Shown: one piece after another, positions 10,933 to 22,954 of the stretch
Layout of the letters: each line of letters begins with the position of its first letter
How positions within the stretch are numbered: position 1 is the stretch's first letter
Assembly (NCBI GenBank): GCA_965202625.1
Contig: CBDBBI010000010.1
Location: 2,528,001 to 2,592,000 of the forward strand
From: a bacterium
GTDB lineage: Bacteria; UBA8248
Length of the DNA: 64,000 bases
Reading direction: 5' to 3'
Position numbers and translations under genes: made by a program
Notes under the pieces: model-generated
The model's database searches: none
Told to the model about the DNA's origin: nothing
The model's input: only the letters and a program-made list of their open reading frames with translations

Positions 10933-12225
10933 TCAGGGGAGTTCGGGCAACGCCATCCCTTCGCGTTTCGATTCCGGGAATTGTCTGCGGTAGTCCTCCA
11001 GCAATGCGCTCTTTTTCTTCGCATCCATCCTCTCGCCGGCGAGGTGGGCGATGAGATCGGTCGCCAAATTGCGATTTTTGGTGATGATTCTGCCGTCTGC
11101 GGCCCCGCCCGTCCAAAGAACGCCCTCCCACACTTTCTCGATGTTGTCTTCGGTGATCCCCCAGGGCAGGGCGTTCAAACTCTCGCACGCTTGCTGGTCG
11201 CTCATGTTGGTGGGAGCACCCGTGAGACGCAAAAAGGCGCGTACGAGACATTCCTGCCCCACAGGTTTGCCCAGCAGGTTCGCTTTCCGTATTTCTCGAC
11301 GCTTTTCGTCTCCCGATTCTCCCGATTCCTCTCGATCGCTCAGTGCATCGGCGAATACGTCGATTTCTTCCACCAGCGTTTCCCACACGCGCCGCACTTT
11401 ATCCCGGTAGAGGTGTTGTTCTTTCTTATCGGGTAGGTTGGTCGTGTCCAGTTTACCTTTAGGAAATGTCGTCTCGATAATCGCCTTGTTGCAGTTGTAG
11501 ATGATGGCCAGAGTGGTGAACTCCGGATCTCTCGGACGCAAGGTGTTGCTGGTGTATTTTGCGAGGCGTCCATCAAGCAGATCGTTGGTTATTTCGCGCG
11601 CGAGCACAGCGGCGAAATCGTCATCGTCTGTAACGATGTTTTGACCGGTCGTGATTTTTCTGGCGTATCGGTTGACGCGCGTGAAAATTTTGCGCGCTTT
11701 TTGCGGTTCGTAGGCGACCAGAATGACGGTAACGTCCTCTCGCGCCAGTTGCGCGCATGGCTCGATGCCGGAAATGTCGCGCGAAAAACCATTCTGGTCT
11801 CGCCCGGTAACGGCGAACTCAATCGCTTTCAGCCGGTGCTGTCCATCCAGTGGGACGAGCATCTCTCCTCCGGTGAAAGTGAGAAAACCCATGCCGGAAG
11901 CGGCTGTGCGATACAGGTTGGGCAAGCCTTTCGTCGTCATGTCAGATAAAGGCTCGAATAAGATTTCCTCCCCAAAGTTCATCGCTGCGACAATGATGGC
12001 GCCGAAAAAACGCGATTCATCGTTGGCCAGATACGGAGCGATTTGTTTTTTGACGCGGTTGTAGTTGATGTCGGATTGGTAGCGCTCCTCAATGGACATA
12101 TCGTCCCAACCTTCCATCTCTTTGGGAATTCTGACGCTGCTTATCAATTCCCCCGCCTTCATCGTGAGAATATAATAATCCGTGTCGCCCAACCGAGCCT
12201 TCATCGCGGCAATCGCTTTGGCCAT
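10933..12225 (-). CDS. DndB-like DGQHR-domain protein (DNA sulfur modification regulator family)
   Basis: LDGQHRL motif, YQSDINYNRV..IAPYL, FFGAIIV and IFTRVNRYAR; AAGAGG RBS. Confidence 0.85.
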   Translation of the reverse strand: MAKAIAAMKARLGDTDYYILTMKAGELISSVRIPKEMEGWDDMSIEERYQSDINYNRVKKQIAPYLANDESRFFGAIIVAAMNFGEEILFEPLSDMTTKGLPNLYRTAASGMGFLTFTGGEMLVPLDGQHRLKAIEFAVTGRDQNGFSRDISGIEPCAQLAREDVTVILVAYEPQKARKIFTRVNRYARKITTGQNIVTDDDDFAAVLAREITNDLLDGRLAKYTSNTLRPRDPEFTTLAIIYNCNKAIIETTFPKGKLDTTNLPDKKEQHLYRDKVRRVWETLVEEIDVFADALSDREESGESGDEKRREIRKANLLGKPVGQECLVRAFLRLTGAPTNMSDQQACESLNALPWGITEDNIEKVWEGVLWTGGAADGRIITKNRNLATDLIAHLAGERMDAKKKSALLEDYRRQFPESKREGMALPELP

Positions 12226-12267
12226 CCGGAACCTCTTAATGGTTGTGATGCTCGTTTTTTCTGGCCG

Positions 12268-12579
12268 CTAAAGCCGGATTAAGCGTCGCTCAAAGCGGTC
12301 AATTCTCCTTGGCTCTGGCTCCATGCGCATATAGCATATGTCCAGAAATGCGCCAAATTCCGCGATCCACAACCTGAGCGTTTCATTGTGGGAGCCGCGC
12401 CAGTGGTCCTTGAGTCGCTTTTGTATGGGTTGCCTGGGTGCCTGGCTTACGTAAACGCACTTGCCAGTCTTTCGAGACCAAAAAGCGTAAACGTCATGTG
12501 CCGAGCGCGGTATTCTGTCGATGGTGTTGTAGTCCCACCTGAAAACTTCGCGGTGCTTATCCTTCTTTTGTTGACGCAT
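12268..12579 (-). CDS. Small GIY-YIG-like endonuclease, probably damaged
   Basis: VYAF...CVYVSQA...IQKRLKDH...ERRLIRL pattern. YVG is changed to YVS and the protein stops at TAG where W-x-P-x-x-N would be expected. Confidence 0.55.
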   Translation of the reverse strand: MRQQKKDKHREVFRWDYNTIDRIPRSAHDVYAFWSRKTGKCVYVSQAPRQPIQKRLKDHWRGSHNETLRLWIAEFGAFLDICYMRMEPEPRRIDRFERRLIRL

Positions 12580-14360
12580 GAATCAAAAAGACCACACTTT
12601 CTTTGCGGCGATTCTCTCCAGCTTTTCTGCTTGGCGGCTATCGCGTCTGGCGACCACTCTTCGTGAGCAATCTGTCGGGTAAGCGCGACGGCACTACGCC
12701 CGAAAATCTCTTTCTTTCGGGCAAAGCTCGCGTTGTCGCTTTTGCCTGGCCTGTTGTCTTTCTGCCCGATCAGAGTCAGATTGCCTATCCGATGAATCCA
12801 ATGCTCAGGTTTTTGCTCCTTGAAATTCTTCCAGTCTGCCCAATGCTCTGGCGACTTGGGAAGAATATGCTCCACCGTGCAGTGGGCTTCGTTAATCAGG
12901 TCGCTGTCGCTTTGCATGTGATGGTTCACGCTGAGCAGAAAACGCTTGCTTCTTCTTCTCGCATCGCGGATTTCGATAGATTTCATTTTCTCGATGAATG
13001 TATCGTCGTCGATGATTCCGTAGGTTCCGTCGAATTCTTCTAAGGCGGCCATGACGTCAATATCGTCCAGTTTTTCGGTGGCCATGATTTTTTTCGCCAG
13101 GGCCGAAAACTCGCTCTCGAAATGCGAAGGCTCAAATTTGGGGGAGACGAAAGCCGTCCGCATGATGAAAGAGGTGATGCGTTTGAGATCAGCGTGAATG
13201 CGTTTCGCCAAACGCCTTTTTTCTCTTGTATCCGGTTCTATGACGTAGCGGCTCAACAGTGCGAACACCATCGGTTGTGCCACCTTGTAGGTTTTCAGTT
13301 CCTGAAGAAAAACGGACAGGTTTCGCTTGCGGTTATTCGAGTGGGAATGCTTTTGAAAAATTTGGATAAAATCACCCGTCATGCTTGGACTTGTGATTGT
13401 CTGGAAAAGCTCCACGCTGTCCGGGCGGGAGAATTCACTCACCAAATTATAGATATAGTTCGCTGGATTTTTGGAATCAATTACGGAGCGAATGGTGTTG
13501 CGGGTCGTCCGGTAAAAACTTTTTTGGGGCAAAAAGCCGTATTTGCACTGAAAATAGCATCGTGCGTATTCGCCCGCCTTCATGTCGTTCCTCAATTGCG
13601 CGCGCATATTTTCCAGGTTCTCGTGTACCGTGTCGCGCCGTGCTTGTTCCTCGGGTGCGTTGAAATAGGAATACATGAAATTGCGAATCAGATCCCAATC
13701 CTCAAGTTGCTTGCCTCGGCAGTTGATCGTCTCATACACGGAGTTCGGGTCTACTGCATCTGGTATGTAGAGGCACGCGACTTCAATTTTTTTGAGCAAA
13801 AATTCCATGAATCGTTTGGCGTTTTCTGGTTCCATAAGAGAGATGAATTGATCGATCTCCCGCCACGCATCGGTGAGTTTGCCGTTTGTTCCGATGCTGT
13901 CTCCGCGAATCATCAGGTTGTAGCGTGTTTTGTCGTCTCTCGGCGGCGTGAGGCGGGGTTCAAATTCGCTGACGTCGTCAAGCCGCGCCGCGTTGGTCGC
14001 ACCCAAATCGAACAAAACCTTAAGCGCGAAATACTCATATATTTGTTCGTTCGCCTCTTGAAACAAGCGACTGAGGCGCGCGCAAACGAGGGAGACCGTC
14101 ACCATGCGTTGCTGGCCGTCGTTGATTTCCCAAACTTTCGTTCCTTTTTCCACTAGCATGATCGCACCGAGAAAATAACAGTTGCGATTTTCTTTGATGG
14201 CTTCATCTATGTCCTCAAGCAATTCCCGAACGTGCTCTTTCGTCCAGTCGTATCGCCGTTGATGCCAGGGCACGACGAACTTTCCCGCGTGAAACAGGTG
14301 CGAGAAAACCCTCTGCCTCGTTGTGATGATGGTTTCTTCGGCGGCGGGCGTTGTGCTCAC
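12447..14360 (-). CDS. DUF262 (DGQQR NTPase) plus DUF1524 (HNH) nuclease, GmrSD/SspE-like; native stop probably 12583 after a 1-nt frameshift near 12623-12626
   Basis: VPWHQRRYDW, YFLGAIML, INDGQQR, YETINCRGKQL, TVEHILPKS and HRIGNLTL motifs. The GTG start overlaps the dndC-like stop (GTGA). Confidence 0.88.
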   Translation of the reverse strand: MSTTPAAEETIITTRQRVFSHLFHAGKFVVPWHQRRYDWTKEHVRELLEDIDEAIKENRNCYFLGAIMLVEKGTKVWEINDGQQRMVTVSLVCARLSRLFQEANEQIYEYFALKVLFDLGATNAARLDDVSEFEPRLTPPRDDKTRYNLMIRGDSIGTNGKLTDAWREIDQFISLMEPENAKRFMEFLLKKIEVACLYIPDAVDPNSVYETINCRGKQLEDWDLIRNFMYSYFNAPEEQARRDTVHENLENMRAQLRNDMKAGEYARCYFQCKYGFLPQKSFYRTTRNTIRSVIDSKNPANYIYNLVSEFSRPDSVELFQTITSPSMTGDFIQIFQKHSHSNNRKRNLSVFLQELKTYKVAQPMVFALLSRYVIEPDTREKRRLAKRIHADLKRITSFIMRTAFVSPKFEPSHFESEFSALAKKIMATEKLDDIDVMAALEEFDGTYGIIDDDTFIEKMKSIEIRDARRRSKRFLLSVNHHMQSDSDLINEAHCTVEHILPKSPEHWADWKNFKEQKPEHWIHRIGNLTLIGQKDNRPGKSDNASFARKKEIFGRSAVALTRQIAHEEWSPDAIAAKQKSWRESPQRKCGLFDSCVNKRRISTAKFSGGTTTPSTEYRARHMTFTLFGLERLASAFT

Positions 14361-15508
14361 GTGCACGCCTCGATCAGCGCTAGCCTCCCGTTTTCGCGCA
14401 CCTTGTCCACGCGCCATATCTCCTCGATCATCTCGATTTCAGACGGCAAAACGAGCCGCTCTCCGACCTCTCCCTCCAGTTCATGGAGACGGCGGAGAAT
14501 TTCGCTGCGCACCTCGAACCGAAACGGGCCCCGGACGAGGTTCCCGTTGGGCTTGAGTTTGGCCTTGCCGTCCCGTCGCACGGGCATTCGGTTCTCGTTG
14601 TTCTCGCGCAATTCGATGAGCCATTCCCGGAAATCCGCCAATGCCTCGAATTTCTCCTCCTCTTCATGCCCGGCGGCGATGATGCCGCGCAGGCTCCTGT
14701 CTTTCTTGATGACGGTACACGTCCAGCAACCAAAACGCGGCGAGGTCGTTCCGCACGATGGCGCGTCCTCTTTCGTCAGCACGAGCGGGCAGTCGCCGCC
14801 GCCTGCGTTGCGATAGAGGGTGATCAGGTTGCGGTGGGTGCCGCCCCAGGGCGGGTTGAGCTGCGGTAGAATCATCCACACCTCGTCGTCGCGGAGATCG
14901 GCGAGAGGTGCCCACGTGCGGCACCCCTCTATCGTTCCGTGCGGCTGCGTTTCTTCGGCCTGCACTCCGTGCTTTTCCATGTTGCGGCGTCTGTTCTGTG
15001 ATTCGCTTCTGCGCGTGCCGATCAGCAGCACTGCGCGCTTATGTCTGCGCAGGAGGTTTTCCAGTAGATGCTCGGTGGGGCGGATTTTCATCCTGTCCGT
15101 GCACCAGCGGAAATTGCGCGTGGGCGGAACGTATCCCCGGCCGATCACGTTCACCCAGAAGGTCTGATCAACGCAGGGTTTCGTAAGAGCAACGCGGACG
15201 GGCAGCACGTCCTTCTCCGCCGCCGCCCTGATGGCGTCGAGACTCTCTTTCAGATGCCGAATCACGAGGGGCGATTCGACCAGCGTATCGTTTCCGATGA
15301 CGTGCATCTCGCGTCTGCGCTCCCCTGGAGGGCAGGAAAGCATGGCTTCCCAGGCGAGATGAAGGAGCAGGGTAGAATCCTTGCCGCCCGAGTAGGCGAC
15401 CATCCACGGGTCGGCGGGCGCCTTGCGATATTCCGTCCGCATGACTTCCCGGATGGATGCAAGCCGCGCGGCTGTCTCATGGACGTTGAGCTGCGGCCCC
15501 GCGCGCAT
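14357..15508 (-). CDS. dndC: DndC-like DNA phosphorothioation sulfurtransferase (PAPS-reductase family)
   Basis: WMVAYSGGKDS PP-loop, NDTLVESP, FWVNVIGRGY, FRWCTDRMKI, GTRRSES and SCG..SPRFGCWTCTV Fe-S cysteines. Confidence 0.88.
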   Translation of the reverse strand: MRAGPQLNVHETAARLASIREVMRTEYRKAPADPWMVAYSGGKDSTLLLHLAWEAMLSCPPGERRREMHVIGNDTLVESPLVIRHLKESLDAIRAAAEKDVLPVRVALTKPCVDQTFWVNVIGRGYVPPTRNFRWCTDRMKIRPTEHLLENLLRRHKRAVLLIGTRRSESQNRRRNMEKHGVQAEETQPHGTIEGCRTWAPLADLRDDEVWMILPQLNPPWGGTHRNLITLYRNAGGGDCPLVLTKEDAPSCGTTSPRFGCWTCTVIKKDRSLRGIIAAGHEEEEKFEALADFREWLIELRENNENRMPVRRDGKAKLKPNGNLVRGPFRFEVRSEILRRLHELEGEVGERLVLPSEIEMIEEIWRVDKVRENGRLALIEACT

Positions 15509-15706
15509 TTCGTCCTCGCTGGGCGTGAACAACCCGGCTTTATGATAAAAGATTGGATCGAACCCTTAAAACCTGAATATAAGGGGAGAGGGGAGGGCGA
15601 ATCAAACGGCGCATGGCTTCAGCCCATTCCCTTGTTCGCAGGCCAGGCACGCGCGCGCCGTTTTAAGCGGAATGGATTTTCGCCCTTGCCGGGCGGAGGA
15701 GGCGCC

Positions 15707-16588
15707 ATGAACGACGCGCTGCTGGCGGCGGGTTTCGCACTGGGCACCGCGTCCATGTCCTCGGCCTTCAGCCTCGTCGCCAGGCGCGGGCAGCAGCATG
15801 GCTCGGCGATGACGGGCGTCGTCATCGGTTTGCTCGCCAACGTCCCCTGGTTGATCGTGCTCACGATTCTCACCTGGGAGCCCGCCTACTGGAGCGGAGA
15901 AGCCTGGTTTTGGTTCTTCCTATCGGGCCTCACGGGGCCCTCGCTCGGCCGCGTGTTCATGTTTCGGGCGATACACAGCCTCGGGGTGTCGCGCGCGATT
16001 CCCCTCATGGCGGCGAATCCGCTTTTCTCCGCCGTCTTCGCCTACTTCTTCCTCGGCGAGCGGCCAGGGGCTTACGTCTGGGCGGGAATCGTCCTGGTCG
16101 TCCTGGGCTGCGTCGGCATCACCTATCAGCGCAAGAGCGACGCACCCTGGGACAGGCGCGCCATCTGGCTGCCCCTGATGGCCGTTTTAGGGTTCTCCAT
16201 CTCCAACATATTCCGAAAGGTCGGAATCGATCTCGTCCCCTCGGCGCTTCTGGGCATCACGCTCACCAGCGTTTTCGGTCTCGCCGCCCTGCTCGCCCTC
16301 CTGCCGCTTTTGCCCAAAGCCCAGCGCCCATCTCTGGGGTGGGGACGCGCCTGGCATTTTTACGGTCCCTGCGGGTTGCTCAACACCCTGGCGTTTCTGA
16401 GCCATTTCGCCGCCTTGAAGTATGGAGACGTATCGGTCGTATCGCCGCTTTCCTCCACGGCACCTCTCTTCGCGCTCCTGTTCACCTGGATGTTTTTGCG
16501 CGATGTGGAGCGCATCACGCTCCCCATCGTGCTGGGGACGGTCTGCACCGTGGCGGGAGGGGTGCTCATCGCTCTGCAAGCGATGTAG
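15707..16588 (+). CDS. DMT/EamA family transporter, paralogue of 7945..8826
   Basis: GGAGGAGG RBS before ATG 15707, 293 aa, motifs shared with 7945..8826. Confidence 0.85.
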   Translation: MNDALLAAGFALGTASMSSAFSLVARRGQQHGSAMTGVVIGLLANVPWLIVLTILTWEPAYWSGEAWFWFFLSGLTGPSLGRVFMFRAIHSLGVSRAIPLMAANPLFSAVFAYFFLGERPGAYVWAGIVLVVLGCVGITYQRKSDAPWDRRAIWLPLMAVLGFSISNIFRKVGIDLVPSALLGITLTSVFGLAALLALLPLLPKAQRPSLGWGRAWHFYGPCGLLNTLAFLSHFAALKYGDVSVVSPLSSTAPLFALLFTWMFLRDVERITLPIVLGTVCTVAGGVLIALQAM

Positions 16589-16591
16589 CGC

Positions 16592-17137
16592 TCAGCCCGT
16601 GAGGAGCGCCCGTATTTCGGGAGCGACGTTCCGGGCGCGCTCCCGAAGCTGCGCGTCCGTCAGGCTGCCCACCGGATGGGGGACGTAGGCCACCGGATAG
16701 CCCGGCATTCCGCGCACCCTGGAGACCATCTCGACCGTGGGCCGAAAGGGTTCGGTGCAGATGACGGCGGTGGGGACGCCTCGTTTCTCCAACTCGATTC
16801 CATCGTGCACACTGCACGAGGAGCAGGAGCCTCAGTCGCCCACCGCGGTGATGGCGAGGTCGCATTTCTCGGCCATCTTCGCATACATCTCCGGCTTCGC
16901 CGGTCGGGTGTCATATTCCTTCGACAGCGCAACGGCGAGGTCGGGGTCCGCTCCGTCCGTCCGCAGTTCCTCAAGCACGTAGCGCATGAGCTTGTCCGCG
17001 CCCACCTTGGAGTTCCAGAGCAAGCCGATCCGCTTGCCGGCCAGTGCGCCGTCGCGCTCGATGCGCCTCTCGTCTTCGATCTCCGGCTCCACGGTCGGAT
17101 CGTAAATCGGTATCGCCGTATCCACTGCGGAATTCAT
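16592..17137 (-). CDS. UGSC-family selenoprotein (181 aa, Sec at TGA 16834-16832)
   Basis: ORFs 16832..17137 and 16592..16810 are in frame. Read-through gives AITAVGD-U-GSCSSCSVHDGIELEKRGVPT, and a hairpin follows the TGA. Confidence 0.88.
16799..16822 (-). promoter_or_regulatory. Putative bacterial SECIS element
   Basis: Perfect stem TCGTGCA-GTG-TGCACGA begins 12 nt after the TGA and extends by TCC/GGA pairing; G-containing apical loop. Confidence 0.7.
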
Positions 17138-18213
17138 CGAGCACTCCCTCCCGTCAGTTCGCCATCGTTGGATTCTGTATTTTTACTTTTCCTCTCCGTC
17201 GCGCTCAGAACCGGGCGGGTGACGGCCTCCCCGTTTCGCCTCCTGCTCCACGAGGGCACCCATGAGGAATGTCCTCCGGCCTCTCCGCCGGCGACCACGA
17301 CGTGGACGTCCTCGGGGGTGAGCGCGTGGCGCACGTTCCCGTTCTCGTCGGCGGCGATGGGCTTGTCGATCTTGCCGGTTTTGAGGAGCAGGCGTAAGGG
17401 GAGCGTCGCGTTCTCGAACAGGTATTCCCTGAGTTCCCTCTTCGTGGGGAATTCCTGCCCCAGAAGATGCGCGTGCTCGGGCGCGAAAACGAAGAAGGAT
17501 TGTCCCTCGCTCATGCTGCCCAGGCCCGTCATGGTGGCGGCGGCGGTTTCGGCGATTCCCCGTCCGCGTCCGTAGTGGTTCTGAATGTTGTGTGGCCCCT
17601 CGGCGGCGAGCAGGGTGACCGCGCTCCTCCCCTCGGCATGTCCCAGATCTACGCTCAGCGGCTCCCAGGGGCTTTTCTCTTCCCATTCGGCGAAGGTGAA
17701 ACTGTATTTGCCCGGATTTCCCTGGGTGGAGCGATCCAGCAGCCCCGGTTTCGAGCCCAGGCAGTTGATGATGACGAGTCGAAGCGCGCGGCCTATCGTC
17801 GCGCCCGCGCGGTTGCCCGGTCCGTAGATGTTTCCCGCCATGTGGAGGTCTATCTCGTGGCGCACCGGACCGTTGACGACCATGAAGGGCGCCGCCCCGC
17901 CCGTGCTGGTGGCGCTCGAGTGCAGGTTGTAGGCAGGGTCGGCCATGGCCTCCAGCGCGGCGAGAATGACCGGCATGTAGGAGGGCAGACACCCCGCCAT
18001 GATGGCGTTGAGCGCCACCTTCTCAGCGCGCACCGTCCTTTTTCGCTCCGCCAGGCGAAATACGACGTCCTCCGCCTCAAGGCCCGAGGCTTCCAGAAAG
18101 CGCTCAAGCAGGTCCGGTCTGGGCGGAACGACGGGCAGGCCGTCCGTCCATCCCCTCGCGTGATAAACCTCCATCGCCTCGTAGAGATCCACAGCCTCGC
18201 TCACCGCGTCCAC
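17134..18213 (-). CDS. Conserved hypothetical protein, partner of the UGSC protein
   Basis: GWTDGLPVVPP, VALNAIMAGC, NRAGATIGRA and QGNPGKY motifs; ATGA overlap with the UGSC gene. Confidence 0.8.
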   Translation of the reverse strand: MDAVSEAVDLYEAMEVYHARGWTDGLPVVPPRPDLLERFLEASGLEAEDVVFRLAERKRTVRAEKVALNAIMAGCLPSYMPVILAALEAMADPAYNLHSSATSTGGAAPFMVVNGPVRHEIDLHMAGNIYGPGNRAGATIGRALRLVIINCLGSKPGLLDRSTQGNPGKYSFTFAEWEEKSPWEPLSVDLGHAEGRSAVTLLAAEGPHNIQNHYGRGRGIAETAAATMTGLGSMSEGQSFFVFAPEHAHLLGQEFPTKRELREYLFENATLPLRLLLKTGKIDKPIAADENGNVRHALTPEDVHVVVAGGEAGGHSSWVPSWSRRRNGEAVTRPVLSATERKSKNTESNDGELTGGSAR

Positions 18214-18439
18214 TGAAGCCTCCTGTGCTCAGATACACTCTCTCAAGACGCAGAATATCCCAGAGAGGCGATTTTGAAAACGCGCGCCCCGGAAACCAGG
18301 GCGGTCCTCTCCCGCCGGCGGAGGAGGGACGCCGCGCCCTCGCGGCTTCGGAGACGACTTACGTTTGGTGTATCATTCTCCCATCCCGCCCCGCGCTCGC
18401 CCTGGACGATTGGTGGGCGCAACCAGAAGGAGCGGCTAG

Positions 18440-19122: not shown

Positions 19123-22100
19123 CTACGCTTCGGAAAGAGCCTTCTGAATCGCTCGTAATTCGGCGTCGGTGATGCTCCAGATGGCGGCCGCCGCCCTGTC
19201 GATTTCAGCCTCCAGTTCCATCATCACGTCTTTCTGGCCGTTTTCCGCCGCAACGTGACATTGGCGCGAGAGTTCCGCCAGCCGCGCATGGATGCTGTCC
19301 CTCTTCCTGAATCGAGGAACGGCGATGTTCTTCATGATATGTGGTGAGGGATGGAGAACGACATAAGCCGCCGCCGCCGCTTGGGCAGGTGAAGAATTGA
19401 GCATTCCAGCGATGAAGTGGGCCTCATGCTCGTTGTCGGAAGAGACCAAAACGATTGAATGATCAGGCAACGAGGGCTTCATGTTCTCCACTGTTGAGGA
19501 ACCGCACACGCTTGCGCGGACCGTGTGTCCGACTTCGGGCCAGAGCACTTTCCATTCCGTCATGGTATATGGCCCGACGTTGTACATGGAGTAGAAGGGA
19601 TCAGAAGGCTTGAAATACCGGCGGTAGCCTGAGCGCCCGCGCAGCGTTCCACGTTCAGGTTTTTTGGGGTCGCCCTCGAATCGCTTCAAGTAGGCGAAGG
19701 TCTTCGGCCAGCGGCGTTTCATTTCCGCTTCGGGAATGCCTTTTCTCGTTTGCGGATCCTGCGCAAGGATGATGTATGCGGAAGGCCGGGCGCGCCAGCG
19801 TTTGACGTCCCGACCGCGCAGCAGGGGATAGACCAAATCCGGCTCGATGGCGGCCTGCGTCCGCTCGACCTTGATCTTGCCGACGTCGTGCAGGTTTTCG
19901 ATCAGGAGTTCGCCATTGGGTCGTTTCTCCAGGATACGAATCCAGTACACGCCGTTCAGCCACGTGCAGCAGCCGGCGTTCGCCCGATAGTCACTCGCCC
20001 CGATCACTTTTTGGATACCGGGGAGCGCCTGTTTTGGGGCCGTGAGCCAGGGGGACGAGTCTTTGGAAGGGATAACCGGAATCGCCTCAATTCTCCTTTG
20101 CTCCGTCGCTTTGAGAACGCTCGCAAGAGACTCCTCTTGCGCAATGCGTGAAGCGCCTTTCCATGTCGTGTATCTTGCAGGGTAGGCAAAGGGTCGTCTC
20201 GTTTTTTCACAGATAAAGATGGCGGTGCGGTTGGTCGCGCCCTCAAAGACTTGCATTGCGCTCATGTCGTGGACCATGAGTGGTTTGAGGTGCCACGTCA
20301 TGCGAGGCTTGTCTTGAACGTATCTCAGTTGTCTGAAGCCGTCGCCCGCGCCCTGCGTCTTGAACACGCTCTGCGTGATGACGAACCCGAGTCTCCCGCC
20401 TTTTTCCAGATAATTGTCCACCGAGGAGTAGGTGAACAGCATGGACAAGTCTTTCTTGCCTCCTCCCAGACGACCCTCCGACCCCGACAGCGTGAAGAGA
20501 TTGTATTCCTGCCAGAGAGGTTTCATGTCGTCGCGGTAGCCGTCGGGCAAATGCTCCCAGTTCACCCAGGGCGGATTGCCCGTCACGTAGTCCACCTTGC
20601 CGATGAACAGGGGCGCAAAGGCGTTCTTGATGATGCGCGCCCAGACGCCGTTCTTGTTCTCGGCGTCGAGTCGCTGAAGTTCGCGATAGAGTTGCTTGTG
20701 GAGTTCGGCTTCTCCCGCTGGAATGGCTTCGATCTCGCAGCGCTCGAGGAATTCGTCGGGCGAATAGCCGTTGCCGATGCAGAACTCGAGCGCGTCGGCG
20801 TAGCGGCCGATATGTTCCCGATTTCCGGCGACTTCCACCGGTATGTTGAAGTCTCCGGCGCTGGTCTTGAGTCGCCGCACGCGGTCCAGTCTTCCGACGG
20901 AGAGGTCGCTATATTCCGAGGGCGTCATGATCGAATCGCACAAATAGACGGGCAACTCGACCGCATCCGCATGGCGCAGCAAATCGCGGACAGCCATGAG
21001 ATAATTGGCGCGCGCGGCCATGACGGCCAGCGGATTCAGGTCAAAGCCGATGACGTTGCGCAGAATTTTGCGCAGCAACCCGTCCTCGCTGAAGCCGCAT
21101 TCGTAGCGGTGTTCGCCAAACCAGCGTTTGACGCGATTCAACGCCATCACCAGAAAGGTGCCCGAACCGCAGGCGGGGTCGAGCAAACGCTTGTCGGGGT
21201 CACCGTCATAGCCGAGTTCGTCGAGCACGAGTTCGGCGAGCCAGTCGGGCGTGTAGTATTCTCCGAGATCGTGCCGGACGGATTTTGGAAAAAGCTGCTG
21301 GTAGAGTTGCTTGAGCAGGTCGCGGGATTCTGCGGGATCGACGCTGAGCGTGGTGGGGTCGAATTCGTCAAGGTATTTTGTCATCGTGCGCACTGCGTCC
21401 GCGCATCCCTCGTCCCATGCGTCGAGATACCAGGAGAAGAGGTCGCCTTCGAGGAAGTTGCGAATGCCGATCTGCGACCAGATGCCGCCGTGTTCGAGAT
21501 TCCGCAGTTCCTCCCGTAATTTGGCCGAAGTAGGCGCGGAGACGAGTCGCCTCAGCGTTGAAGTCCCCAGGGGCGAGAAGGAGGCGACTATCTCGGCGGC
21601 AAGCATTTTCATGAATATGGCGTAATAGGTATGAACGGCGAAGAGAAGCTGGGCTGGACGGGGCCCGGGTATCGAATAATGGTCGGCCAATGCTCTGACC
21701 TTGTGACTCCGACCATGGATGTCATAGCCGCAAACCTCGCCGAATAAAATTTGCCATTGGCGGAAAAACGTTTGCGCCTTGGGGCTGTTGGTCGTGCGGA
21801 TGAGGTCATGGATGAGGCGAACGCCTTTTTGGGCACTCGGGCTCTCAGAGCCAAAATAGTCGCTCAGGTTCTTCGGCGTGAAGGAAAGCCCCCGCGCGCC
21901 CACCGACACGATTGCCCGCAGCAAACGCTGGACGGTATGCGCCGTGACCGGCTGCGGACTCTCGACGTCGAACCTGGCCCCATGTTTCCGCACGAACACG
22001 AGAACGTCGCCATCGCACCCCACGCCGAGGATGCGATCCATGCCGACGTGCTCTTTCGCCTCAAAGTCCCTGAAGCGTTTTTTGAGTTGCTTCACAACGG

Positions 22101-22386
22101 CTTTGGCGCCCGGTGCGTTCTCATTCTCCGTAATTTTGCCTGCGCCCTTGGGGTCCTTGTACTCAATGACCACGCCGCCATATTTCGAGTCGATGCGTCC
22201 GCCCGCCAGGTCGTATTCATGTCGGCCCTTGAGGGTGAGTTCCGCTTTGTTGATGAACTCGTCGATCAGATTGTTGCACGCATGGCGCACGTCTTCCTCC
22301 GAGCCGGCCCCTTGAGCCGCCCCGACCATCTGCTTCGCCATCACCTCAGCGTGCGTTTGAATCAACGTTTCGAGGTTCGTATCCAT
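19123..22386 (-). CDS. Type IIG-like fused restriction endonuclease / N6-adenine methyltransferase
   Basis: N-terminal RID...IEYK PD-(D/E)xK motif, GEYYTP, LDPACGSGTF (motif I), GNPPW (motif IV) and a C-terminal TRD. Confidence 0.9.
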   Translation of the reverse strand: MDTNLETLIQTHAEVMAKQMVGAAQGAGSEEDVRHACNNLIDEFINKAELTLKGRHEYDLAGGRIDSKYGGVVIEYKDPKGAGKITENENAPGAKAVVKQLKKRFRDFEAKEHVGMDRILGVGCDGDVLVFVRKHGARFDVESPQPVTAHTVQRLLRAIVSVGARGLSFTPKNLSDYFGSESPSAQKGVRLIHDLIRTTNSPKAQTFFRQWQILFGEVCGYDIHGRSHKVRALADHYSIPGPRPAQLLFAVHTYYAIFMKMLAAEIVASFSPLGTSTLRRLVSAPTSAKLREELRNLEHGGIWSQIGIRNFLEGDLFSWYLDAWDEGCADAVRTMTKYLDEFDPTTLSVDPAESRDLLKQLYQQLFPKSVRHDLGEYYTPDWLAELVLDELGYDGDPDKRLLDPACGSGTFLVMALNRVKRWFGEHRYECGFSEDGLLRKILRNVIGFDLNPLAVMAARANYLMAVRDLLRHADAVELPVYLCDSIMTPSEYSDLSVGRLDRVRRLKTSAGDFNIPVEVAGNREHIGRYADALEFCIGNGYSPDEFLERCEIEAIPAGEAELHKQLYRELQRLDAENKNGVWARIIKNAFAPLFIGKVDYVTGNPPWVNWEHLPDGYRDDMKPLWQEYNLFTLSGSEGRLGGGKKDLSMLFTYSSVDNYLEKGGRLGFVITQSVFKTQGAGDGFRQLRYVQDKPRMTWHLKPLMVHDMSAMQVFEGATNRTAIFICEKTRRPFAYPARYTTWKGASRIAQEESLASVLKATEQRRIEAIPVIPSKDSSPWLTAPKQALPGIQKVIGASDYRANAGCCTWLNGVYWIRILEKRPNGELLIENLHDVGKIKVERTQAAIEPDLVYPLLRGRDVKRWRARPSAYIILAQDPQTRKGIPEAEMKRRWPKTFAYLKRFEGDPKKPERGTLRGRSGYRRYFKPSDPFYSMYNVGPYTMTEWKVLWPEVGHTVRASVCGSSTVENMKPSLPDHSIVLVSSDNEHEAHFIAGMLNSSPAQAAAAAYVVLHPSPHIMKNIAVPRFRKRDSIHARLAELSRQCHVAAENGQKDVMMELEAEIDRAAAAIWSITDAELRAIQKALSEA

Positions 22387-22387
22387 C

Positions 22388-22954
22388 TCACTCCGCACCC
22401 TTCAGCAAACTCGTTTTGGTGAACACCGCCTCAAGGGCGAAGCCGCGCGCGGCGAGGTTCTTCCGTCCGCCTTCCTCCCTGTCCACGAGGCAGATGACCT
22501 GCGCGATTTCGAGACCTGCGGAGAGTGCCGCCTCAATCGCCACGAGGCTGGAGGCGGCGGTGGTCACCACGTCCTCGACGATGGCGACACGCATTCCCGC
22601 TCTCAGGTTTCCCGCCCCCTCGATGCGGTTTTGCATTCCGTGTCCCTTCTCCGCCTTGCGAATGATGAAGGCGGGGACGTCGACGCCTGAGAGCGCGGCG
22701 GTCATCGAGACGGCGGTCACCATCGGGTCCGCCCCCAGGGTGGGTCCGCCTACGGCCTGTGCCCCGCTTTTCCGAATGCGCTCGAGAATCACCCGCCCCA
22801 CGAGCCGCGCCCCCTCGCCATGGAGGGTGACCTGGCGGCAATCGACGTAAAAATCGCTCTCCTTGCCCGAGGCGAGCCGCACCTTTTTCTTCTCATACGC
22901 CTTCTCCAGCAAAAGCCGGCGCAGGGCTTCCAGGTCTGCGTCATCCCTCCTCAT
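22388..22954 (-). CDS. pyrE: Orotate phosphoribosyltransferase
   Basis: LASGKESDFYVDCR, IRKAEKGHG and VEDVVTT PRPP-binding loop. Confidence 0.93.
   Translation of the reverse strand: MRRDDADLEALRRLLLEKAYEKKKVRLASGKESDFYVDCRQVTLHGEGARLVGRVILERIRKSGAQAVGGPTLGADPMVTAVSMTAALSGVDVPAFIIRKAEKGHGMQNRIEGAGNLRAGMRVAIVEDVVTTAASSLVAIEAALSAGLEIAQVICLVDREEGGRKNLAARGFALEAVFTKTSLLKGAE

Follow-up and report, generated by a model that had tools for sequence, protein, structure and literature searches.

The segment 17137-16592 (minus strand) is very probably a single gene that encodes a genuine selenocysteine (Sec)-containing protein of the UGSC family, as judged by comparison with related sequences. It lies in a window of 64,000 nucleotides, the whole stretch of DNA analysed here (positions 2528001-2592000 of contig 10 in a genome of 3.09 Mb); the features of the locus are collected in Table 1. 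The gene is an ordinary member of an already described family and provides one more clean example of it. 'UGSC-containing protein' has been in print as a family since at least 2008 (Zhang and Gladyshev, PLoS Genet 2008, PMC2398784), and in Table 2 of that paper, with 255 Sec and 21 Cys forms, it ranks with the commonest selenoprotein families of the GOS metagenomes. Where a 2026 review (PMC13188914) enters the family, under NF041046, the functions of such proteins are described as largely uncharacterised. The novelty implied by a preliminary description of this DNA was thus overstated, since the gene is a typical representative of a family already known. The correction to the annotation, in which one selenoprotein gene replaces a truncated 101-aa fragment, is valid but minor.

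Table 1. Features of the UGSC locus, given as positions in the window, and of related loci in the same genome, given as positions on the contigs named
Feature	Position	Strand	Remarks
UGSC family selenoprotein gene (very probable)	16592..17137	minus	181 aa; predicted Sec is residue 102; ATG at 17137
In-frame UGA, predicted U102 of the U-G-S-C motif	16832..16834	minus	TGA conserved in homologues
Putative SECIS hairpin inside the coding sequence	16800..16822	minus	Core stem and lower extension; comparative conservation
True stop codon (TGA) of the UGSC gene	16592..16594	minus	Both family profiles end at residue 180/181
Partner gene, 359 aa, of a large unnamed family ('Unknown_1')	17134..18213	minus	Upstream of the UGSC gene and coupled to it
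GRDB/PrdB-like loci L105-L108	contig 10: 1926832-1927296, 1777000-1777509, 2152050-2152493; contig 2: 12883-13326		

Under translation table 11 the UGSC frame is split into an ORF of 101 aa (16832..17137) and another of 72 aa (16592..16810). When TGA is read as U, the two become a single protein containing ...TAVGD-U-GSCSSCSVHDG..., which ends at the second TGA. The preliminary description, in which two short ORFs were joined by read-through of the TGA at 16834-16832 into a 181-aa protein, was correct to the base, and the motif it named, GD-U-GSCSSC, is present in the read-through translation. A Shine-Dalgarno-like run, GGGAGGGAG, lies upstream of the ATG. The protein matches Pfam PF24696 (UGSC) with 185.5 bits against a cut-off of 25, over residues 11-180 and profile positions 2-171 of 172. 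Its score on the equivalog model NCBIfam NF041046, 'UGSC family (seleno)protein', is 146.9 bits against a cut-off of 125, over profile positions 2-147 of 147. Both alignments cross the TGA uninterrupted, and the family assignment made at the outset therefore passes both curated models. The accompanying statement that standard gene callers miss such a gene holds in part: the N-terminal 101 aa have been called as a protein in NCBI/ENA, but NCBI has a dedicated model in NF041046. The same look-up, which cannot find records written with U, returned no public record of a full-length Cys-substituted form.

The in-frame TGA is conserved wherever the family was examined. A scan of one genome per species identified 171 stretches encoding relatives, of which the best 80, with 41-90% identity, were kept. 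These derive from metagenome-assembled genomes (MAGs) labelled as Nitrospinota, as Dehalococcoidia/SAR202/Chloroflexota and, in one case, as Acidobacteria; the closest loci among them, at 85-90% identity, belong to MAGs whose label is Nitrospinota or 'bacterium'. With the window's own copy, a paralog (L022) and a second copy in one of the loci (L102) counted in, the set comprises 84 copies. Although the search pattern at the U column would also accept Cys codons or other stops, the codon is TGA in 84 of 84 copies, which derive from two phyla. A third paralog (GG-U-GSC) likewise carries TGA at this position. The U-G-S-C column is invariant in an alignment of 25 sequences, and the motif was found in all 80 related loci. 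In a survey of the phylum the family occurs in 43 of 51 genomes, and all 150 of the matches listed contain exactly one TGA (there are 89 further matches). An alignment of homologues had been proposed as a check on the Sec assignment, with copies lacking both Cys and Sec at this column to count against it; every copy examined, the third paralog included, has the Sec codon at exactly this column.

The codon that ends the frame behaves differently. Among 85 homologous copies, 32 have TAG as the first stop beyond the Sec codon, 29 have TGA and 24 have TAA; in 83 of the copies this stop is 79-85 codons past the Sec position. A column that is always TGA, followed by a real stop that uses all three codons, is a pattern characteristic of recoding, as opposed to termination or decay. 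The TGA is also seen in three metatranscriptomic contigs, X7 (16702-17163), X8 (16687-17033) and X9 (16744-16924), which extend across it by 88 nt or more in both directions and show zero differences. They come from three RNA libraries of one study. The contigs rule out an assembly slip as the source of the TGA; since DNA may be present in such libraries, they are not proof of expression.

The second feature of the locus is a hairpin directly downstream of the TGA on the same strand. The TGA is followed by 12 nt, GGCTCCTGCTCC (16831-16820), and then by the 5' arm TCGTGCA (16819-16813), a GTG loop (16812-16810) and the 3' arm TGCACGA (16809-16803). The 7-bp stem, its loop and its distance from the TGA had been described exactly. 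At its base this core is extended by 2-3 bp (16822-16820 with 16802-16800). The minimum-free-energy fold of a 66-nt stretch includes the hairpin, but that fold is no better than chance (z = -1.22, with 25 of 200 shuffles folding at least as well), and the single sequence alone is thus no proof of a signal. A scan of 16400-18400 against Rfam identified no family for the hairpin, nothing being near any gathering score. A second 7-bp hairpin (CATCGCT, loop TGCAG, AGCGATG) is found at 16560-16591 (minus), 6 nt past the terminal TGA. It overlies the 3' end of a convergent transporter-like gene (15068..16588, plus) and may be a shared terminator or a chance occurrence.

Comparison among relatives is more informative. 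The region of the first hairpin is gap-free among them, so that its codons are directly comparable. Codon choice was examined at 38 degenerate codon positions at which the amino acid is at least 90% conserved, and the five lowest normalised synonymous entropies fall at codons +5 to +9 after the UGA (TCG TGC AGT GTG CAC). At these positions Ser is TCG in 75 of 77 sequences, Cys is TGC in 77 of 78, Ser is AGT in all 77, Val is GTG in 73 of 74 and His is CAC in 74 of 77. The normalised entropy of the five codons is 0.00-0.22 compared with a median of 0.83 (Mann-Whitney p = 2e-4, which is descriptive only because the relatives are not independent). In absolute terms their synonymous entropy is at most 0.24 bits, against 1.4-1.9 bits in the flanking four- and six-fold degenerate codons. 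Codons +1 to +4 (Gly, Ser, Cys) use all synonyms freely. The amino acids of the segment, CSSCSVHD, are themselves conserved, and the nucleotide conservation is hence partly at the level of the protein; the synonymous-site analysis addresses this.

The pairing itself was examined in an alignment of 83 sequences, 76 of them distinct. For every pair of the seven-pair core, 75 or 76 of the 76 distinct sequences have standard pairing, and only two cells are unpaired. The changes observed within core pairs are GC to AU (2), CG to UA (1) and GC to GU (2), and compensatory double changes occur in three distinct sequences. A shuffle control showed that the proportion of paired cells (91.4%) is not above that in shuffles (91.6%). 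Pairs changed on both sides were the only measure to stand out, being matched in 2 of 500 shuffles; the covariation is thin because the hairpin hardly varies. Three loop positions, G32, U33 and U35, do not vary among the 83 sequences. In the paralog L022 the closing A-U pair is replaced, and from this sequence the functional form may perhaps be a 6-bp stem with a 5-nt loop, N-G-U-N-U. Across two phyla, then, the hairpin shows hardly any change, in contrast to the freely varying wobble positions beside it, a pattern in keeping with the SECIS role first proposed for it. Its conservation, together with the Sec machinery of the genome, supports a putative SelB-dependent SECIS element.

That machinery is complete in the same genome. 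The selA gene (565.5 bits) adjoins selB (361.4 bits), selD scores 332.6 bits and has one in-frame TGA of its own, and a tRNA-Sec was identified with 75.8 bits against Rfam RF01852, which ARAGORN also calls as tRNA-SeC with anticodon tca. All four are above their cut-offs. The preliminary description had concluded that the organism uses selenocysteine and had named selA, selB, selC and selD as the genes to look for, their absence being what would speak against it; all four components were found. The genome carries three UGSC paralogs, namely the copy in the window and two more, with one TGA each. In addition, there are four GRDB/PrdB-like loci (Table 1), each with one in-frame TGA. One of these (L105) has the motif A-U-GLC and scores 23.7 bits on PF07355, and two others (L107 and L108), located on two contigs, have identical motif contexts. 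From these loci, together with a SelD that contains Sec, the organism appears to use selenocysteine widely, and its selenoproteome is rich and probably under-annotated.

Copy number in the lineage is higher still. Most genomes of the same genus (G014-G035) have 7-9 UGSC matches, with one TGA in every match that was listed. The window's genome and one other (G023) have only 3-4 copies compared with the 7-9 in most genomes of the genus. The UGSC family has thus undergone a marked expansion of copy number in this lineage.

In the E. coli fdhF model, a complex of SelB, GTP and Sec-tRNA(Sec) binds the SECIS hairpin and delivers Sec at the UGA. By analogy, the UGA at 16834-16832 would be decoded as Sec with the hairpin 12 nt downstream serving as a bacterial SECIS. 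SelB with GTP and Sec-tRNA(Sec) would bind the apex of the hairpin, where the G-U of the loop is invariant, and Sec would then be delivered while the UGA occupies the A site of the ribosome. Translation would end at the second UGA (16594-16592), which is without such a conserved element.

Other explanations of the split frame can be weighed against this evidence. The TGA could be a real stop that makes the gene a pseudogene, or a sequencing or assembly error in a gene of the Cys type (CGSC). The frame is indeed broken under table 11, the public gene calls hold a truncated fragment of 101 aa, and Cys homologues exist (21 Cys forms against 255 Sec forms in GOS; PMC2398784, Table 2). However, a stop would be expected neither at the same column in all 84 copies, drawn from two phyla, and singly in all 150 of the phylum matches listed, nor ahead of a frame that is under protein-level selection as far as the normal end of the family. 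An error is contradicted by the independent RNA-library contigs, which show the same TGA. We regard decay or error as extremely improbable, and the conservation of TGA among related sequences effectively refutes both. No greater weight can be given to two separate small proteins of 101 aa and 72 aa, the second initiated at the GTG at 16810. Both pieces are open frames with possible starts, but the TGA is crossed by a single Pfam domain (2-171 of 172 positions) and by a single alpha/beta domain in the predicted structure, and the GTG at 16810 is a Val codon inside the loop of the hairpin. Two proteins would also divide the UGSC motif itself, and the probability of this arrangement appears negligible.

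Somewhat less improbable, although still very unlikely, is read-through of the UGA that does not, or does not only, insert Sec. This could take the form of near-cognate insertion of Cys or Trp, of insertion of Cys via the Sec pathway when selenium is scarce, or of a genome-wide reassignment of UGA. Since Cys homologues exist (PMC2398784, in the forms counted there), Cys can functionally replace Sec in the family, which lends such read-through some plausibility. The genome nevertheless contains a complete Sec pathway, and near-cognate read-through would not need a hairpin conserved at the nucleotide level. The UGA is also the ordinary stop of the partner gene, of the UGSC gene itself and of 29 of 85 homologues; this ordinary use as a stop argues against reassignment across the genome. 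Insertion of Sec at a single recoded UGA is accordingly the reading preferred here.

The protein that would result from Sec insertion was modelled with AlphaFold2 from an alignment of 25 sequences (pLDDT 88.2, pTM 0.82). The model shows five strands and five helices in a single doubly wound alpha/beta domain. U102 is placed at the start of a helix (103-118), directly after a strand (94-98), and Cys105 lies one turn further on. In the same alignment U102, Cys105 and Cys108 are invariant, and Cys92 and Cys127 are at least 90% conserved. As modelled, the geometry of Sec102 and Cys105 suits a selenenylsulfide/selenol redox couple. Matches to the fold are generic and of the flavodoxin or Rossmann-like kind (Foldseek E 5e-5 to 7e-4 with TMq 0.33-0.48; VIA Z 8.1-10.6), and no thioredoxin is present among the best 50 rows of either fold search. 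The passage on UGSC in the 2008 paper (PMC2398784) assigned it a 'likely Trx-like fold', which is not borne out by the predicted model but may still be right. Sequence and profile searches of the PDB yielded nothing meaningful for the protein. One chain of the methyl-coenzyme M reductase activation complex, 8s7v_H, appears in both fold lists (Foldseek rank 21, TMq 0.47; VIA rank 2, Z 9.8, with 131 aligned residues and 18% identity). As a special relative of UGSC it was rejected, the match not being distinct from unrelated rows and reflecting, perhaps, only a common alpha/beta fold.

The gene immediately upstream encodes a partner whose stop codon overlaps the UGSC ATG at 17137 in the sequence ATGA. 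A homologue of this partner flanks UGSC in 78 of 83 loci; it is upstream on the same strand in 76 and on the opposite strand in two. Three of the five loci without a partner homologue lack upstream sequence. The partner has no match in Pfam or NCBIfam, nor in sequence or profile searches of the PDB. Its family is large, with 6618 clusters at E <= 1e-5 among 8000 scored, and every name given by the sources of the 120 relatives listed is 'hypothetical protein'. A protein atlas returned unnamed clusters and one automatically named 'Thioredoxin family protein'. The partner has a conserved block, A-x-N-A-x-M-A-G-C-x-P-x-Y-M-P...E-A-M-x-D-P...N-G-P, which matches the 'Unknown_1' domain drawn in Fig. 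S1A of PMC2398784. That figure depicts 'Unknown_1' fused to UGSC in ocean reads, marks one conserved Cys and lists a Methanothermobacter homologue of the domain. The marked residue corresponds to Cys75 of the partner, which is at least 90% conserved in an alignment of 36 sequences.

Some relatives of the partner are much longer. Among 42 of these (630-2000 aa), 28 carry a domain of the Pyr_redox_2 type, nine carry PF24696 and five have other or no domains. Several sources name the relatives with Pyr_redox_2 thioredoxin reductase. In other organisms, to judge from their predicted domain content, UGSC and the partner are fused into one chain. The structure of the partner was modelled with pLDDT 84.4 and pTM 0.87. 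Foldseek gave nothing at E <= 1e-3, the best match being a class I fumarate hydratase (E 7e-3, TM 0.25), and the best match in a wide VIA search had Z 5.8, under the tool's stated background of 7-8. The RNA-library contigs leave large stretches of the partner uncovered, and none bridges the junction of the two genes with 31 nt on both sides; this tells nothing in either direction.

Beyond this pair the genomic context varies. When 56 ORFs in the flanks of 10 loci were scanned against Pfam, no conserved third gene emerged, and nothing recurs beyond the pair. One of the ten loci (L081) has an AhpC/thioredoxin-like gene downstream, and it is alone in this. No thioredoxin or thioredoxin reductase gene adjoins the pair within the window. 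On the side of the UGSC gene away from the partner, the window contains a DndC-type sulfurtransferase at 14357-15532 (minus; TIGR03183, 319.4 bits against a cut-off of 290.4) and a DGQHR/DndB-like protein at 10933-12225 (minus; TIGR03187, 87.4 bits). Between these two genes is an ORF of 656 aa (12447-14417, minus) that is without an NCBIfam match. The region 10933-15532 (minus) looks like a DNA-phosphorothioation-like set of genes. An ORF of 1091 aa at 19123-22398 (minus) has weak matches to DNA methyltransferases of the BREX PglX type and the MADS type (E ~5e-12), far below the cut-offs. The UGSC pair may thus be located inside a stretch that resembles a defence island, with the Dnd-like genes on its other side.

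The co-translated partner, and relatives of it that are fused to UGSC or to flavoproteins resembling thioredoxin reductase, make a selenol-bearing subunit of a two-subunit reductase the likeliest role for the UGSC protein. Whether UGSC and the 359-aa 'Unknown_1' partner are indeed the two subunits of a widespread and undescribed selenium-dependent reductase is a question on which we place even chances. In this scheme UGSC would be a small subunit acting together with the co-translated partner, and the Sec102/Cys105 couple would be its redox centre. The partner would hold the substrate site, and its nearly invariant Cys75 is a candidate relay residue. Electrons would pass from NAD(P)H to a flavoprotein disulfide reductase or thioredoxin, from there to Sec102/Cys105 and finally to a substrate bound by the partner. 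Sec102/Cys105 would carry out the reductive step and would then be recharged via a flavoprotein resembling thioredoxin reductase.

Few selenoprotein families are as abundant as UGSC in aquatic metagenomes, and the present observations make its function approachable by experiment. The family is paired in a nearly obligate manner with one huge unnamed family, members of that family are fused to domains resembling thioredoxin reductase, and the partner has no convincing relative among solved structures.

The proposed recoding element shares several features with bacterial SECIS elements of the fdhF type. Both are hairpins that directly follow the UGA within the coding sequence; the apical loop starts at a distance of 20 nt from it, and the loop has an invariant G and U. 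The window's element differs in being very short, with either a 7-bp core and a 3-nt loop or 6 bp and a 5-nt loop. The predicted protein may or may not belong with the UxxC selenoproteins of the thioredoxin fold; its model is a doubly wound alpha/beta domain, and no thioredoxin stands among the 50 rows listed by each fold search.

Glycine, sarcosine and betaine reductases and D-proline reductase pair a selenoprotein with a second, separately encoded subunit. The UGSC protein was compared with four models of selenoprotein B, TIGR01917, TIGR01918, TIGR04483 and PF07355, which cover GrdB, GrdF, GrdH and PrdB. As in that family, Sec is located in a U-x-x-C motif. The window's UGSC protein scores 20.7 bits on TIGR01917 against a cut-off of 602.2, the matched region of the model being 317-399 of 431, and 14.9 bits on TIGR01918 against a cut-off of 65.45; PF07355 is absent from its Pfam matches. 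Matches below threshold are common in the UGSC alignment, with 24 of 25 sequences matching TIGR01917 (best E 3.3e-7) and TIGR01918, and 13 of 25 matching PrdB. Membership in selenoprotein B was rejected, these scores being far below the curated cut-offs. No significant alignment between UGSC and a GRDB-like selenoprotein of this genome was obtained with hhalign (probability 0.4%), BLASTP or hmmsearch, and none of the three methods brings the U-G-S-C motif into register with A-U-GLC. UGSC also differs in size from the selenoprotein B models, with 181 aa compared with about 430 positions, and the partner matches no family. The relation to GrdB and PrdB is accordingly one of functional analogy with a possible distant kinship, and not of membership. 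The proposed logic of UGSC and its partner would parallel that of protein B of glycine and proline reductases, without demonstrable membership in that family.

The closest comparison remains that with the UGSC family itself (PF24696/NF041046). The window's gene shares with it a full-length match, U-G-S-C at the conserved column, the in-frame UGA, a downstream hairpin and the association with 'Unknown_1'. Whereas the 2008 description has UGSC and 'Unknown_1' in fusion, the partner in the window is a separate, translationally coupled gene. In other respects this member, which comes from a Nitrospinota-like genome, shows no essential difference from the family.
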